NCBI GenBank assembly: GCA_017853455.1
Contig: JAFMJM010000368.1
Span: 1 to 29,639, forward strand
Direction: 5' to 3'
DNA from: Acidimicrobiia bacterium
Lineage (GTDB): Bacteria > Actinomycetota > Acidimicrobiia > IMCC26256 > PALSA-555
Length of the DNA: 29,639 bases
The translations under genes were made by a program, and so were the position numbers. A model generated the notes under the pieces. That model was given only the letters and a program-made list of their open reading frames with translations, had not been told where the DNA came from and searched no databases. Each line of letters opens with the position of its first letter. Position 1 is the first letter of the stretch. Positions 12,080 through 29,639 of this stretch are shown piece by piece.

Positions 12080-15000
12080 TCACGTACCTCGATAAACACA
12101 ATAAGAGCCCGCAGGTAGCGTGGAGTCGTAACTCCACGTCACAGCCTGGCCCATACGAATAAAAACACCGCCCCAGTAGATCGGGTTCGCTCGCGCCGTT
12201 GTTGAGCGAATAAAGCAGCGCAACACGTCTCCAGAAGTCACAGCAAACGAGATGGCCTGCTGAAACACAAACGCGCCCTCCGCAAGCGTGAAGGGGATTG
12301 ACGCCGCCTCAGCACCGTTCTTTTCAACAACAAGGCGGTACGTGTTTGGGTTTCCCGTATCTACCGCGGAAATCTCAACATTGACGACAGTGACGGTTCC
12401 CGCAATCTGAATTGTCGAAGGCGTTCCCACCTCAAGGCCTGCGGCCGGCACTACGACTTGGAGTCCGGACACAAAATAAGCAGCCTCGTTTTTGTAGGGG
12501 CTAAGATCGTAGGACAGGACGCTGTCCAGACTCGCCTTGGTACCTGCCGGAAGCGTCGTGCAAAGAGTCCGCACAATGGCGTCTTCGGGGCACAAAGCCG
12601 CGCGGTCATACGCCCAAGCAACGGCGAGCGTTGGGTCCGGAAAAGTCGGGGCCGTCGCTAAGTCCGCGTCGTTATCGTATTGATTGCGCGAACCGCCTCC
12701 GGCGGGACGGTGCTGGTCGTAGATAGGCGCCACGCCCAGTGCGCAAACACCGGTGTCCATGTGCAGAAGCCCGTGCCGATGCACGGCATCGGACGTTGTC
12801 ACCGTTGTATTTCCGAGCTGCGAGCGCACCACAAACAACGGATACGCGTACGTCGGCTTTATCTTCAGGATAAAGCTGCGAACGAAAAGAAGGGCCGACA
12901 AGTTGAACGCGGCGCTATCCACGCGCACCAAAAACTTGAAGAACTTCTCGACTTCGAAGAAGGCGCCTTGCTCCAAGTACCCCTGGAACCATTCTGGGTT
13001 TTTCACCCAGTCGACAACCTCCACGCCCTGCACCAAAGGCGCAAACTGCGTCACAGCGTCGCCTACCGCATACGGCACGCCCGTAGAGGGGTTGGTTTCC
13101 AGAGAGAGCGCGACCGGGAAGGAGTACGACCGGACGATGGTGGTGTCCGCCGCATCCTGAACAAGGATGCGTCCCGTTGTCGCGCTAAAGTCCGTACGAA
13201 TTTCGACAATCGTGCCGGCCTCTTCCGCGAAGGGAAGCCCGAGCAAAATCTGCGTGCCGGCCCGCAAGTTGAACAAGGTCGGTCCGTTGGTGTACGCAAA
13301 CCAAAGCCCTCGAACCGCCGAGAGGTAGTCCACATTGGAAGGCAGCGTGGACAAGTCATCGAGCGTAAATCCGGCAGGAATGCCGAAGTTCGCCTCGATG
13401 CGCGGACGGTTATCGAGGTAACTGGTTTCTGCCCAAAGCTGCGCCGGTGGCAGCTGTCCTTGCCAGATGTCCGGCCCGCCCGTCGCTTCCGGAACAGGGG
13501 TAATAAAACGGAAGCACTTCTGTCCTCGGAACGTATCAATTGCGTAATCGACGTTTCGACGAAGAACCTGCGTGTCGTCTTTCGCGACAATCTTTTCCTG
13601 CAAGAACGGGACATCCGCAATCAATGGATCTAGCGGCACGTACTTCTTGCGGAGCACACCCTTCAAAAAGACAAAGTACCGACTAGAGTCCGATAAGTAC
13701 AAGCCAACGGGCGTTGCGTCCACGGCCAGGCTCAGGGGCGTTGCCGACGAGGCGCCAAGTACACGGCCCGTAACTTCGAGCAGGTTCTGCGTCGCCGTGT
13801 CCAAAACTTCGTACAGGACATAGTCGTCCTGCTCACAGAGACCGTCCCAGAAGTTCAAATCCTTGGACGTCACAGTACCGGCAAGGGACCAGGATGTTCC
13901 TGCGGGAACAGGAAGCGGGTCTAGCAGCGCAAGACGCTGAAAATAAAAAGGATCGGAAGGGTCATCGAGAACACGACCAATCCGATATGCAACGCCGTCA
14001 ATACACAGGAAGTCACCTTGCTTAATGTCGAGGTACTGAAGGCTTCGTTCTGCACGATACGTCTGCGAAGTAACAACGCCTGCTCCCGAAGTGCCTTGAG
14101 GAACGCCATTGACTTGCCCCGCATGAAAGAACGGACAGGTGGTGGTCGACGCAATGCTGAACACGAAAGGCGCATCAATGCGGACGCGTGCGTAATTTCC
14201 GTCCCGCTTGAAAAGCACATGAACCGAAAACCGCTCGTCAATCTGACGCAGGGCTGCCTGTAGCGCATTTTGAAGCGTGTACGGTGTGTGCGTATCCGCT
14301 GGGCCAAGCGCTAGCGTCAAAGGAACATCGAGGCCCACGAGCTGCACATCGACGTGCGTACCGGGCGTAACGGCGGTTCCTGTAAAAAGGATATCTTCCG
14401 ACTCAATACCGCTGTACATCGCGCGGACTGTAGAAAGCTCACGAAGCGCAATGCTCTCTTGCATGAGCAGGTCGTAGTGCATCCAGCGCCGCTGAAACGT
14501 GCGCTGAATATCTCGAAGGCTCTTGGAGTAATCGACCTGCCAGAGCGTTAAGAGTTCGGCAGCAGCAACTTGGGCCAGGCCTTGCCAGAAGGTCGTAATA
14601 CGCTCGGTATCTTCGACGAGCCGCCAAAAGTCCGACAGGTAGTTCCAAATGAACGATACGTCCGGGACAACCCCACGAGCGACGACGGACTCCATACAGT
14701 TTGCCACAAGTTGCGTGGGCTCTGAAAAGAGGACGCCATCGAACACCGTCAGGTCGAATTTAAAGATTCCAGGAACATCGGGATAAAACGTCGGCTTCGG
14801 CGACGTTGGCGTATTGAGTCCGTTCTGCCGAATGTACTTGAACGCCGTATTGCTTGAGAGATTGTCGGGCAGCGTGTAGCTGTCAATACGCACAAAGAAG
14901 CCGTGCGTATCGAGGCCCCTACTCTCAATCCGGTATACTTTGCCGCCGACGACAAGAACGTCGTCCTGCAAGATCGGCTGGATGCCGTCCAAAATACTAA

Positions 15001-23292: not shown

Positions 23293-23348
23293 GACCTGCC
23301 TCCTTAGTCGTAAGGGATACGACGCCGGCGGCCAGTCTACAGCGAGAG

Positions 23349-23403
23349 GCTAAAAAAACAGAAGGCAGAAGAGCAGAGGTCCCGTACCCACTGCTCTTCT
23401 GCC
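23349..23403 (-). terminator. Intrinsic terminator separating non-structural from structural genes
   Basis: Perfect 13-bp stem GGCAGAAGAGCAG/CTGCTCTTCTGCC (23364-23376/23391-23403) followed on the minus strand by TTCTGTTTTTTTAGC. Confidence 0.75.
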
Positions 23404-23457
23404 GTTCACACAGGAGTCCGCCAGGCAGCATACCTACATGCCGAAGCCTGGCAAGAC

Positions 23458-24279
23458 TTACCGTGCATTCTGTAAGAACTCAGCCGCCGGCCCCAAAGGT
23501 GTATCGAGCGTCAATACATGCACACGTTTCGGGTCTTTGCTAGGGTACGTCTCCTGACGATGCGGAGGCGGCGTGTCCGCAAGCGACACGCGCTCAAACG
23601 TCGGCGCAAACGTACGCAGAAACTCCTCGCGCACGTTGTCACTTGCCCAATAGCTTTGCTCAGGCCACACAACGGGAACGTTCTTTTGAAGCTCGTCAAA
23701 GCGCGAGCCTGGGTAAACCCAGTACGCACGCCCCTTGTGGGACGGCTTTTCCACTTGGATGAGCACACCGTTCTCCGTAAGTGCCCAGAGAATCGCCCGC
23801 GATGCGCGGGTGCCAACGCCTCTGGTCGCGAGGTGCTCGCTAACGTCCGCCACAAGTAAGCCGATTGGAGGGGCCGTACATGGACGCTTTAAATGCTGCA
23901 GCAGTAAACTTCGTACCCTGCGGCACTTACGGGGGTACGTCGTAAATCCGGCCACGTAGTGTCCGTATGCACGTTCTTTTTCCGGCGCGCGCATCACGAA
24001 GAAGGACTGCCCCGTCGCCGGAAACCGCAGCCGGTCTCCAGAGCGCTTGGGTTTTTGCGCAACCAGCGGCGGATTTGGAGAAATCTCCAAAACCGGAGGT
24101 GCCGGCTCGGTTGTTTCTTCTTCGTACACCACCTCCGGAAACTGCGCTGGAGGCGGTTCTTTAACCTCAGGCTCTTGCAACGACGCCAAGAACTGCTGCA
24201 AAAGCTTGTTGGTCGTTTCATTGTAATCAGCCCAGACGGCTTTTAGGGCCGTCAAGACTTCGGGGTTGTTTTTCGGCAT
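23458..24279 (-). CDS. Hypothetical protein (273 aa), possible winged-helix segment
   Basis: GGAG RBS, acidic/Pro linker, then VADVSEHLATRGVGTRASRAILWALTENGVLIQVEKPSHKGRAYWVY (helix-helix-helix-wing-like by eye). Confidence 0.65.
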   Translation of the reverse strand: MPKNNPEVLTALKAVWADYNETTNKLLQQFLASLQEPEVKEPPPAQFPEVVYEEETTEPAPPVLEISPNPPLVAQKPKRSGDRLRFPATGQSFFVMRAPEKERAYGHYVAGFTTYPRKCRRVRSLLLQHLKRPCTAPPIGLLVADVSEHLATRGVGTRASRAILWALTENGVLIQVEKPSHKGRAYWVYPGSRFDELQKNVPVVWPEQSYWASDNVREEFLRTFAPTFERVSLADTPPPHRQETYPSKDPKRVHVLTLDTPLGPAAEFLQNAR

Positions 24280-24329
24280 GAGAACTCCTGCAAAAGTAAC
24301 CGTACTGTAATTCTTATCTCGTTACTTTG
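24280..24329 (-). promoter_or_regulatory. Conserved leader element, copy B
   Basis: Minus strand CAAAGTAAC-GAGATAAGAATTAC-AGTACG-GTTACTTTTG-CAGGAGTTCTC-ATG; 34/50 identical, ungapped, to 27782-27831. Confidence 0.7.
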
Positions 24330-24424
24330 TACGCTTTTGAAGAGGCTCAACTGCCACGAACCAAACGTGATTATCCATAAATCGCGCCTTTAGCTGCGCA
24401 GCAAATGGCGGATTAACCGTAACG

Positions 24425-25069
24425 TTAGGGACTGATTCCGGCACGTCGGCGAGAACGGGTTTCTTTGACTTGTTGCTCTTGCGCATACTTTTGAATGGGC
24501 CTGTAAGAGTGTCTGTGCAAAGGGCAGACGCCATAGCGCGCCAAGCCCGCTTCGTGCGCCTTGGTGCCGTACCCCACATTTCGGTCGAACCCGTAGTTCG
24601 GAAAATGCTGGTGGTACTGCTTCATAATAAAGTCGCGGTTTACCTTCGCGATCACACTGGCCGCACTGACGGCCGGTACAAGGCTATCGGCCTTCGGAAC
24701 AATCTGAGCCTGCGGCAATTCCGGCAGCGACAAGGCGCCGTCGACAATGACCTCGGCATCCGGGTAACGGGTCAGCATGGATTGAATCGCCGCCGTGTGC
24801 GCCTGCACAAGGGCCGTGGCAACGCCCACCCGGTCAATCTCCGCCGAGCCGGCGGACATCAATGCAAAAGGAACTTGTTGAAGCTCCTTGTAGAGCGCCA
24901 AGCGCGCTTTTGGCGAAAGGGCCTTCGAGTCGGTCAGCCCCTTGGGCGGCTTCCACGAAGAGGGAACCGCCACCGCGCAAACGAGAAGGGGACCGGCCCA
25001 GGCGCCGTATCCCACTTCGTCAGTACCAATGATGTATGTATCTTCTTTTTTAGGCCGGCGTGTTGACAT
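24425..25069 (-). CDS. rnhB: Ribonuclease HII
   Basis: IIGTDEVGYGAWAGP, LTDSKALS, VIVDG, KADSLVPAVSAASVIAKVNRD, YGFDRNVGYGT and GVCPLHRHSY are all hallmark RNase HII blocks. Confidence 0.93.
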   Translation of the reverse strand: MSTRRPKKEDTYIIGTDEVGYGAWAGPLLVCAVAVPSSWKPPKGLTDSKALSPKARLALYKELQQVPFALMSAGSAEIDRVGVATALVQAHTAAIQSMLTRYPDAEVIVDGALSLPELPQAQIVPKADSLVPAVSAASVIAKVNRDFIMKQYHQHFPNYGFDRNVGYGTKAHEAGLARYGVCPLHRHSYRPIQKYAQEQQVKETRSRRRAGISP

Positions 25070-26175: not shown

Positions 26176-26185
26176 AACTTATCCC
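26176..26185 (-). promoter_or_regulatory. GRRATAAG core motif (GGGATAAGTT) upstream of 25917..26141
   Basis: Lies just after a terminator, 36 nt from the end of ATAAG to the ATG; same core as in three other leaders. Confidence 0.45.
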
Positions 26186-26213: not shown

Positions 26214-26248
26214 AAAAAGAAAAAGGCCCTGAGTAAAAACTCAAGGCC
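26214..26248 (-). terminator. Intrinsic terminator after the endolysin unit
   Basis: Minus strand GGCCTTGAGT-TTTT-ACTCAGGGCC (10-bp stem, one G-U) followed by TTTTTCTTTTT. Confidence 0.75.
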
Positions 26249-26273
26249 CTCGAACCCAGACAATAAAAAGAAG

Positions 26274-27743: not shown

Positions 27744-27781
27744 GTAGCCCTCCTCGGAAAAAGAGAGCCGGCAATGGCCGG

Positions 27782-27831
27782 AAAAGTAAAGGAATAAGAA
27801 TTACGACACCTTTACTTTTTATGGAGGAGAC
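27782..27831 (+). promoter_or_regulatory. Conserved leader element, copy A
   Basis: AAAAGTAAA-GGAATAAGAATTAC-GACACC-TTTACTTTTT-ATGGAGGAGAC-ATG, with a perfect 11-bp inverted repeat at 27782-27792/27809-27819. Confidence 0.7.
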
Positions 27832-28557
27832 ATGGACATTGGCGTGACGGAACTTGAAACGCTGATGCGGGTACACCACCGCATCAACCGGCTTGATATG
27901 GGTCGGATTTACGCGAACCTGCACATCAAGGAGAGTCTCTCGGCCGACGAGAAGCTCGAAGCGGCGTTGCCGCTCCTGCAGGTGCTCAATGCCTGCGGAC
28001 AGCTCCGTATGTTCTGGCAGGAATCGACGTTGCGAGAGCTCGCTCGCAACGGAACCATGCACGGCCTGGAATGGCGTGTGTACCCAGGAGGGGTTCTCCG
28101 CATCGCGGAAGTGCACCCAATTCATGAGACACCGTGGGTGCTTCACGTCGCAAAGACCGATTGGTCGCCGGACGGAATTGAGTTGATGGAAGCGGGCGGC
28201 GAAGGAACGTTCGCGCGCTTTATGAAAAAGCAGCAGAACGCGTACCACAGCGACAACTGGACGGAAGCGTCCGAGTGTTTGAACACACTCGCGCAGCTCG
28301 CGAGTCTCTGGAGCATCAGCCGCTGGAATGCGCTGCTGGCGGAGTGTCGCGACGAAGACATTCTGCGGGAGTGGCGCATCGCGCCTCCGCAGATTCCTAC
28401 CCAGATGCTTCTGCCCGCCGAGAAGGCGGCAAAGCTCATCGACCATCTGAGGGACATCCTCTATCCAGGGGATGACCCGAACACAGAGTGGAACTCGGAC
28501 ACGCTCCAAGAGATTGGGCATGTCTTCTACAAATACGGCTTGAAGCCGCGGGAGTAA
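27832..28557 (+). CDS. Hypothetical protein (241 aa)
   Basis: GGAGG RBS, long ORF, followed 2 nt later by the next ATG. Confidence 0.75.
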   Translation: MDIGVTELETLMRVHHRINRLDMGRIYANLHIKESLSADEKLEAALPLLQVLNACGQLRMFWQESTLRELARNGTMHGLEWRVYPGGVLRIAEVHPIHETPWVLHVAKTDWSPDGIELMEAGGEGTFARFMKKQQNAYHSDNWTEASECLNTLAQLASLWSISRWNALLAECRDEDILREWRIAPPQIPTQMLLPAEKAAKLIDHLRDILYPGDDPNTEWNSDTLQEIGHVFYKYGLKPRE

Positions 28558-28559
28558 GT

Positions 28560-29144
28560 ATGGACAACGAAGTCAGCAAACAGGCCCGCACCGCGGCTCG
28601 GCTTGAGAAGGCAACGGGGCTGTATTCCGGTACCTGGGACAATTGTGTCATCGCCGAGCACGTTTGGACACGAGCGCGATTTACCTGGAAAGTCACGCCT
28701 AGCGGACGCGTGCACTTGCGCGCTACCCGTACGCTACTCGTCCCCGACGACCAATGGGAAAACCAGGAGTCGCTTGATGTCGACTACGACCCGAAAACCG
28801 ATCGCATCTCCGTATCGGAAGACGCGCTCTTAGGGGCCATGTGGCACCTATTGCAGAGTCGCGAGACCGAGCGGAGGTACATGCGGACGTACGAGAGAGC
28901 ACTCGGATTACTCGCCCGCTCAATCACAGAGCTTCGTGAGGAGCGCTCTAACGCCGCGTGGACAGACCTCTTCACCAAAAGCACGGACGACCGTCTACGT
29001 ATGCTCCGAAACGAGGCATACACAATTCTGGTGTATGCGATGAAACCGTGGCCTTGGTCGTATAAACCGTTTAAAGGCAGGAACCGCGCAGAAGTGCTCG
29101 AAGAGCGTTTACTCGAAGAGCGTCGTCTTGCCGAACGCGGCTGA
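28560..29144 (+). CDS. Hypothetical protein (~194 aa)
   Basis: Track ORF 28488..29144 trimmed to the ATG at 28560 (GGAG-TAAGT-ATG, directly after the previous stop). Confidence 0.7.
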   Translation: MDNEVSKQARTAARLEKATGLYSGTWDNCVIAEHVWTRARFTWKVTPSGRVHLRATRTLLVPDDQWENQESLDVDYDPKTDRISVSEDALLGAMWHLLQSRETERRYMRTYERALGLLARSITELREERSNAAWTDLFTKSTDDRLRMLRNEAYTILVYAMKPWPWSYKPFKGRNRAEVLEERLLEERRLAERG

Positions 29145-29192: not shown

Positions 29193-29249
29193 GGGAAGTA
29201 GCTAAAAAGGCAGCGCCCTAACCAGGCGCTGCCTTTTTAGCTACTTCCC
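29193..29249. repeat. Perfect 25-bp inverted repeat with a 7-nt loop (bidirectional terminator-like hairpin H1)
   Basis: GGGAAGTAGCTAAAAAGGCAGCGCC-CTAACCA-GGCGCTGCCTTTTTAGCTACTTCCC. Confidence 0.9.
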
Positions 29250-29270: not shown

Positions 29271-29280
29271 GGAATAAGAA
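29271..29280 (+). promoter_or_regulatory. GRRATAAG core motif (GGAATAAGAA) upstream of 29299..29502
   Basis: Identical 10-mer to 27791-27800, located between hairpin H1 and the RBS. Confidence 0.5.
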
Positions 29281-29559: not shown

Positions 29560-29639
29560 TAATGTAATAGTTTTTACGCTACTTCGCCGACGTGCGTTTT
29601 GCCTTGGAAGTCCGCACACTTCGGGATGTTTTTTTAGCT

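Follow-up and report, generated by a model that had tools for sequence, protein, structure and literature searches.

A duplicated 50-nt leader ahead of two unrelated orphan genes in a probable freshwater phage contig

The window, by which we mean the entire 29,639-nucleotide stretch analyzed here (contig C8), carries two similar 50-nt leader elements on opposite strands, each ending at the start codon of an orphan gene. Copy A (27782 to 27831, plus strand) lies immediately 5' of the ATG of P0002, and copy B (24280 to 24329, minus strand) lies immediately 5' of that of P0001. We read the two, with moderate confidence, as a duplicated, portable promoter-leader cassette that heads acquired orphan genes and is built like the promoter-early stem-loop (PeSL) cassettes of T4-type phages; it resembles the known promoter and stem-loop cassettes of large phages, in a low-copy form, and does not look like a new kind of element. 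The mechanism, which we infer from sequence, rests on two copies. If the reading is true, promoter and stem-loop cassettes for new orphan genes also occur in an uncultured group of freshwater phages far from T4, here with a promoter box unlike that of sigma-70, and this would add to the view that in large phages short regulatory leaders are used again and again to bring in new genes. RATAAG, found as CGGGATAAGT in a relative, would then be a concrete motif for annotating early and accessory units of this phage group; the finding raises no new question by itself.

Origin of the contig and its relatives

The window is probably a fragment of a novel freshwater myovirus-like phage that was misbinned into a bacterial metagenome-assembled genome (MAG). 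Genes for a tail fiber, a baseplate-like protein, ThyX, RNase HII, and an amidase are present on the contig, which is thus phage derived, and its GC content is 57.6% versus 72.5% for the MAG that holds it, a difference of 15 points that makes the MAG unsafe as a host assignment. Probably the contig was placed there on the basis of coverage, and its motifs were not found on any other contig of the 2.65-Mb MAG. Neither phage genomes searched by blastn nor 40 genomes related to the MAG yielded a match. The same sequence recurs at 100% identity on more than 12 contigs from freshwater metagenomes (13 or more contigs from at least five studies), and the element is 100% identical in all same-sequence contigs compared. 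One run from another study, X4 (a freshwater metagenome of 2022), contains a strain about 6% divergent beside the reference strain, other X4 contigs being identical to the window.

Relatives, whose genomes are 146 to 195 kb, were recovered through the RNase HII gene, namely, a 16-kb contig (L058), a 158-kb scaffold (L061), L063, and a 146-kb IMG/VR record (L060); a 314-aa structural protein reached only phages with that single gene in common. The window phage and these relatives have in common a 1351-aa protein (47 to 64% identity), a 218-aa protein (48 to 76%), RNase HII (61 to 63%), and the amidase (66 to 67%), in the conserved order 1351-aa protein, 218-aa protein, RNase HII, 104-aa protein, and amidase, and one relative has the Pfam family Phage_phiTE_072. 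P0001, P0002, and the 194-aa and 67-aa genes described below are absent from all four (L058, L061, L063, and L060).

Many independent contigs break exactly at position 29639, within ATGTTTTTTTAGCT (29610 to 29639), where two alternative 326-nt contigs attach. This is an assembly break at a repeated terminator motif, with strain variants possibly lying beyond it.

Two matching leaders and the units that they head

Copy A occupies part of a 91-nt divergent intergenic region, common to P0002 and to the operon of a 165-aa gene and the amidase, and copy B forms the final 50 nt of a 145-nt spacer downstream of RNase HII. The preliminary description had reported a duplicated 50-bp leader, and its sequences read as quoted: the copies align without gaps at 34 of 50 positions, with the ATG in the same register. 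The 435 possible pairs of 50-nt leaders in front of the window's genes have a mean score of 12.7 (standard deviation, 3.1), with the runner-up at 25, which places this pair about 6.9 standard deviations above the mean. Similarity falls off abruptly at both ends of the element, and an independent repeat search of the right-hand 7 kb found no inverted repeat longer than this pair (44 nt, 75% complementary). The pattern AAAGTAA-N22-TTACTTT occurs exactly twice, at A and B, whether one counts the window or all 2.65 Mb of the MAG; shuffled sequences lead one to expect none of this gapped pattern. The same count of two holds for the 11-mer ATAAGAATTAC, whose identity in both copies had also been described before and which is found nowhere else in the MAG; it is invariant, lies at 27794 to 27804 (plus strand) in copy A and at 24307 to 24317 (minus strand) in copy B, is the same in the divergent X4 strain, and includes an ATAAG box, at 27794 to 27798 in A and 24313 to 24317 in B, that we propose as a -10-like element. 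The element is about 35% GC, AT-rich as first described, whereas the "GC-rich genome" of that description is a contig of just moderately high GC content.

No third copy was detected. A covariance model, R1, built from copies A and B (72 bits at copy A) and run with filters off on the window and two further contigs of the phage, about 31 kb in all, found as its sole extra match the reverse strand of A; exact and degenerate scans of the window and the whole MAG found none, and R1 had no match in 57 kb from four relatives. Pattern matches in IMG/VR, JGI metagenomes, and GTDB genomes fell in unrelated, mostly AT-rich DNA with no proteins in common and were treated as chance, and no Rfam family matched at A or B (E value of ≤1). 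A lack of further copies or conservation had been named in the preliminary description as counting against a regulatory element, and as far as these data reach, such copies are lacking.

The genes behind the two leaders are unrelated. P0001 (273 aa; 23458 to 24279, minus strand) and P0002 (241 aa; 27832 to 28557, plus strand) have a best mutual BLASTP E value of 1.3, which excludes paralogy; the dissimilarity of the two proteins noted earlier holds up, and the possibility that their leaders were simply duplicated along with the genes falls away. Because the downstream genes are unrelated, the element is better regarded as a gene-expression leader than as a co-duplicated gene start. Among 5.8 billion proteins, both match only themselves; IMG/VR contains no homologues, and sequence searches of Pfam, PHROGs, and the PDB gave nothing as to function. 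An exhaustive HMMER search of 1.8 billion representatives with P0001 returned one other protein, P0003, as a weak, partial match (E value of 1.4e-4). P0003 (3108 aa) has six stretches that resemble the putative winged-helix segment of P0001 (residues 134 to 193). The C-terminal half of P0001 (about residues 110 to 230) gave weak winged-helix-like structural leads in the Atlas (FUR, GntR, and MarR; TM by query of <0.3), and its single-sequence AlphaFold model is unusable (pLDDT of 42).

P0002 is the first gene of the only plus-strand module in the window, which runs P0002, a 194-aa orphan gene (28560 to 29144, plus strand) that is the second gene of the unit headed by copy A, hairpin H1 (29193 to 29249; perfect 25-bp arms), and a 67-aa gene between H1 and a further hairpin, H2. 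H1 forms a bidirectional, terminator-like end to the P0002 unit. The module lies upstream of the 165-aa gene and amidase pair, which in L061 stands within a uniformly oriented row of genes. The P0001 unit ends in a terminator, a hairpin with TTTTTTTAGCC after it (23364 to 23403, minus strand), which in relatives is found directly 3' of RNase HII or of their own inserts. Both units are thus closed by hairpin and T-tract terminators, and the small regulon proposed at the outset persists in the sense that the element defines two short units, each ended by a terminator.

The slot that P0001 occupies, with RNase HII on one side and the 218-aa gene on the other, is a hot spot of gene gain and loss that holds from zero to four unrelated small genes per phage: in five relatives (L058, L061, L063, and two records without DNA) it contains nothing (L058), a 184-aa gene, genes of 61 and 139 aa, genes of 62, 222, and 53 aa, and four genes. 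DNA 3' of the P0001 stop codon aligns with L058 DNA directly 3' of the RNase HII stop, from which it follows that the segment 23458 to 24424, missing from L058 and comprising P0001, copy B, and the 95-nt spacer from the RNase HII stop to copy B (24330 to 24424, minus strand), is a single indel that makes use of the resident terminator. The left edge of this indel coincides with the RNase HII stop and falls 95 nt short of the element, which is at most a putative recombination joint. A terminator ending in TTTTTYTAGCC precedes the 218-aa gene and is kept in four related phages (window 23293 to 23457, minus strand; L058:5895-6060; L061:11184-11331; L063:7299-7373), and in the window phage and L058 it is followed by a TGTAGACTGGC block; terminator and block may mark the boundary and promoter of the structural-gene block.

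Being inverted and 3,454 nt apart, the two copies might instead be recombination sites at the ends of an invertible or mobile segment, from RNase HII to the 165-aa gene, whose inversion would change the outer gene that is read from the inner operon. The copies are the best inverted-repeat pair of the region and, judging from the gene map, inversion would put P0002 rather than P0001 downstream of the inner operon. We nevertheless find this account scarcely credible, given that the same arrangement is present in all 13 or more contigs from at least five studies, with no strand-changing joint (although these are contigs, from which rare forms could escape), that no recombinase or transposase family was found in the window, that relatives lacking the element have the inner genes in unchanged order and orientation, and that the fixed register of Shine-Dalgarno (SD) sequence and ATG would be left unexplained.

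The ATAAG box and the repeat around it

The ATAAG box at the center of the element is most likely a promoter element, judging from its distribution and its conservation. GRRATAAG occurs six times in the window, counting both strands, and gene-ward intergenic DNA, 1,449 nt in total, contains four of these sites, versus 0.085 expected; none of 20,000 shuffles reached four, a P value that is optimistic because the motif was defined after the sites had been seen and because A and B do not count as independent sites. A terminator directly precedes two of the four, at positions where a new promoter is needed, and the three occurrences of ATAAGAA in the window are each in a leader. Outside the two copies, the box recurs at 29271 to 29280 (plus strand) as GGAATAAGAA, in the same form as in copy A and without the AAAGTAA and TTACTTT arms, 20 nt 5' of the ATG of the 67-aa gene; with just those 20 or so nucleotides between box and ATG, it must be a start-proximal element there. 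It recurs also as GGGATAAGTT at 26176 to 26185 (minus strand), downstream of a terminator at 26222 to 26251. The counterpart of the latter in L058, CGGGATAAGT, is better conserved than any other block of the homologous intergenic region, 3' of the terminator of a 65-aa gene, and L061 carries GGGCATAAGG at the corresponding site; a pattern based on CGGGATAAGT had no match in IMG/VR.

RATAAG matches four of the six positions of a -10 element. A scan for a consensus sigma-70 pair of -35 and -10 elements found none at A or B, with the reservation that this consensus may not fit the host of the phage. Two other candidate signals were discarded: CAA 17 nt upstream of RATAAG, considered as a -35 element, is present at all four local sites and is not kept in L058, and TACGAC in copy A, which recalls T7 promoters, is absent from B.

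Under the cassette reading, the element would serve the expression of two accessory orphan units, P0001 alone and P0002 with the 194-aa gene, in a phage whose relatives lack both. RATAAG(AAT) would be its -10-like element, of a class common to at least two other short units of the phage; transcription would start a few bases downstream of the box, inside TTAC-N3-AC, and yield a leader of perhaps 20 to 25 nt that consists of the right arm, the T tract, and an SD sequence 5 to 7 nt before the ATG. The inverted repeat would bracket the -10-like box much as PeSL stem-loops do, with its 11 bp intact in A and a decaying form in B, and its arms would have a secondary role, either in read-through RNA, as an attenuator or insulator hairpin, or as the site of a regulator.

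The arms of both copies enclose the ATAAG box. In copy A, the left arm AAAAGTAAAGG (27782 to 27792, plus strand) pairs with the right arm CCTTTACTTTT (27809 to 27819, plus strand) in a perfect repeat of 11 bp, significant when its intergenic region is shuffled (P < 5e-4); the right arm is followed by a T tract and then by the SD sequence GGAGGAG at 27823 to 27829. In copy B, the left arm AAAGTAAC (24321 to 24328, minus strand) and right arm GTTACTTT (24293 to 24300, minus strand) form a repeat of 8 bp with P = 0.04 in the shuffle test. As RNA, copy A folds into an 11-bp stem of -9.2 kcal/mol (z score of -2.8) that ends 4 nt 5' of the SD sequence, and copy B folds at -5.8 kcal/mol (z score of 0.0), equal to shuffled sequence. 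Both hairpins have AT-rich stems with 1 to 3 G-C pairs each and loops of 16 to 20 nt; neither copy was called by a terminator scan, and neither combines the GC-rich stem, short loop, and T tract of an intrinsic terminator. Between A and B, one pair is altered on both sides, from A-T to C-G, and B leaves three of the pairs of A open. The compensatory change pointed out in the preliminary description is thus real, but as a single event, with three other pairs open in B, it lends weak support to covariation.

The X4 strain bears directly on copy B. A 778-nt X4 contig (depth of <5) covers it (window 24230 to 25007) and has two uncompensated substitutions in the left arm, G>A and A>G, at 24325 and 24322, with the right arm intact and unchanged. 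No change affects the 33-nt block that reaches from the box to the right arm (CGAGATAAG to TTACTTTTGCA), an observation that alone is not significant (P of about 0.12 at 6.3% divergence); the SD region and spacer are altered and retain their purine richness. The predicted fold of this variant no longer contains the hairpin, and the two uncompensated changes argue that B requires neither a hairpin nor a symmetric operator. The inverted repeat is accordingly significant in A and marginal in B, and a hairpin or operator role for B is not supported. Of the promoter joined to an operator or hairpin that was first suggested, the promoter-like box survives, with its excess in gene-ward DNA and its CGGGATAAGT counterpart in L058; the hairpin is not supported for B, which folds no better than shuffled sequence and has lost the structure in X4.

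These data also weigh on a purely RNA-based alternative, in which the whole element is transcribed and a stem-loop beside the ribosome-binding site (RBS) stabilizes the message, attenuates read-through, or modulates translation. The stable fold of A close to its SD sequence and the one compensatory pair would agree with this, as would the fact that no terminator lies between RNase HII and B, so that read-through RNA would carry the full hairpin; the stem-loops of PeSL cassettes, too, affect upstream transcription (PMC2839356). We rate it as distinctly unlikely, since B folds no better than its shuffles, with three of the pairs of A open, and its X4 variant lacks the hairpin; since the most conserved part, the 11-mer, sits in the 16- to 20-nt loop, where a plain hairpin needs no conservation; since the AT-rich, large-loop stems were not called terminator-like and matched no Rfam family; and since the 91 nt between the divergent genes at A leave little space for an upstream promoter.

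A further alternative takes the AAAGTAA and TTACTTT arms, perhaps together with an internal TTAC box, as half-sites of a phage regulator that controls a two-member regulon of P0001 and the P0002 unit, with P0001 maybe the autoregulating binder. In keeping with this, A and B carry the same 7-nt arms, which the rest of the 2.65 Mb lacks, the arms flank the putative -10 box and start site in the classical position for repression, and P0001 has the weak winged-helix-like leads at residues 110 to 230 mentioned above; L058 has a different inverted repeat around its AATAAAAG box, as would be expected if operator and regulator co-vary. The half-site centers, however, are 29 bp apart, about 2.8 helical turns, and are hence not on the same face of the helix and out of phase for a simple dimer; X4 changes two of the seven half-site positions in the left arm of B and retains the gene; no DNA-binding family was found in any neighboring protein; and the model of P0001 offers nothing usable. 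We regard this alternative as unlikely. A broader version, in which RATAAG represents an undescribed promoter class that a phage-encoded or phage-modified polymerase reads in a little-known group of large myoviruses from freshwater and soil, and the arms are the operator of a regulator, possibly the winged-helix-like P0001 acting on its own gene, so that the two acquired units would form a small autoregulated regulon, we consider very unlikely.

Three smaller features were seen in the divergent regions. The L058 repeat just mentioned (L058:1560-1610, minus strand) is a hairpin of -10.6 kcal/mol (z score of -3.3) around AATAAAAG, upstream of a reverse-strand 101-aa gene; its layout is that of copy A with different arms, and it fits either a structural role or co-varying operators. 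In the window, the interval from copy A to the RBS of the 165-aa gene contains a small GC hairpin, CCGGCCATTGCCGG, followed by CTCTCTTTTT (27768 to 27781, minus strand). A further sequence of that strand, CATAAAAAG, overlaps the start of P0002 and is a candidate promoter for the operon of the 165-aa gene and the amidase.

Comparison with known phage elements

The units headed by the element invite comparison with phage morons, which are units of promoter, gene, and terminator inserted between conserved genes. Like a moron, P0001 has its own leader, is closed by a terminator, and stands between genes that are adjacent in L058. Unlike in a moron, its terminator is resident and conserved in relatives rather than brought by the insert, and the leader is reused for a second, unrelated unit.

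The preliminary description held that the element matches nothing recognizable, a view that does not stand, as the layout is that of PeSL cassettes (PMC2839356). These have been described in the T4-type phages RB49/phi1, T4/PST, and KVP40/nt-1 (Arbiol, Comeau, and Krisch 2010, PMC2839356; Comeau et al. 2014, PMC4122927) and consist of an AT-rich early-promoter motif, a stem-loop that mostly lies between -35 and -10 or over -10, and an SD sequence and ATG at the 3' end (PMC2839356). They favor ORFans in hyperplastic regions and act as joints for gene shuffling (PMC2839356; PMC4122927). The element described here resembles them in several respects: it is an AT-rich intergenic composite motif that ends in an SD sequence and start codon (about 35% GC and the same register in A and B); its stem-loop (11 bp in A, 8 bp in B) encloses the -10 box and is gone from the X4 variant of B; it precedes unrelated ORFans in hyperplastic regions whose makeup varies among relatives, as that of the slot does in five of them; and cargo and regulatory element are inserted or deleted as a unit.

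The differences are equally concrete. There are two copies here in about 31 kb of phage, versus tens in PeSL-bearing genomes; the strong sigma-70 consensus -35 and -10 elements of PeSL cassettes are missing; the stems are AT-rich, with loops of 16 to 20 nt, and not terminator-like, whereas PeSL stems are GC-rich and terminate; and the phage is not of the T4 type. Because A and B are inverted, no excision of a mini-circle is possible, and with respect to PeSL-type recombination, the contigs examined contain no joints, and one edge of the P0001 indel lies 95 nt from the element. With layout and setting the same and copy number, promoter, stem, and phage group different, the element would work like a PeSL cassette and is not a member of that family.

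For the box, the nearest parallel is the early promoter of the jumbo phage AR9, a single AT-rich element of the form AAATATATATTAT-(6N)-G+1 (PMC5312081). In both cases an extended, conserved AT-rich box lacks a recognizable -35 element, and the AR9 transcript begins a few bases downstream of it; the sequence is another one, the likeness is one of design only, and no phage RNA polymerase gene was seen in the 31 kb of phage.

Two other arrangements come to mind for the repeats, neither of them close. N4-type hairpin promoters, used by the virion RNA polymerase, have a stem of 5 to 7 bp and a 3-nt loop just upstream of the start, unlike A and B, with their stems of 8 to 11 bp and loops of 16 to 20 nt. 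The half-sites of the C repressor of phage P2 flank the -10 element of Pe, and so likewise place two short repeats on either side of a promoter core; the repeats of the present element, however, are in inverted orientation at a distance of 29 bp, and their binder is only hypothetical.

The arm sequence also turned up in a 59-kb phage record from IMG/VR (G041; 44% GC), where five direct AAAGTAAC(TATAGC) repeats, spaced at 42 to 57 bp, occupy positions 14221 to 14430. They lie upstream of a gene with a helix-turn-helix-looking product, in a phage that has no proteins in common with the window, and constitute an iteron-like or operator array.
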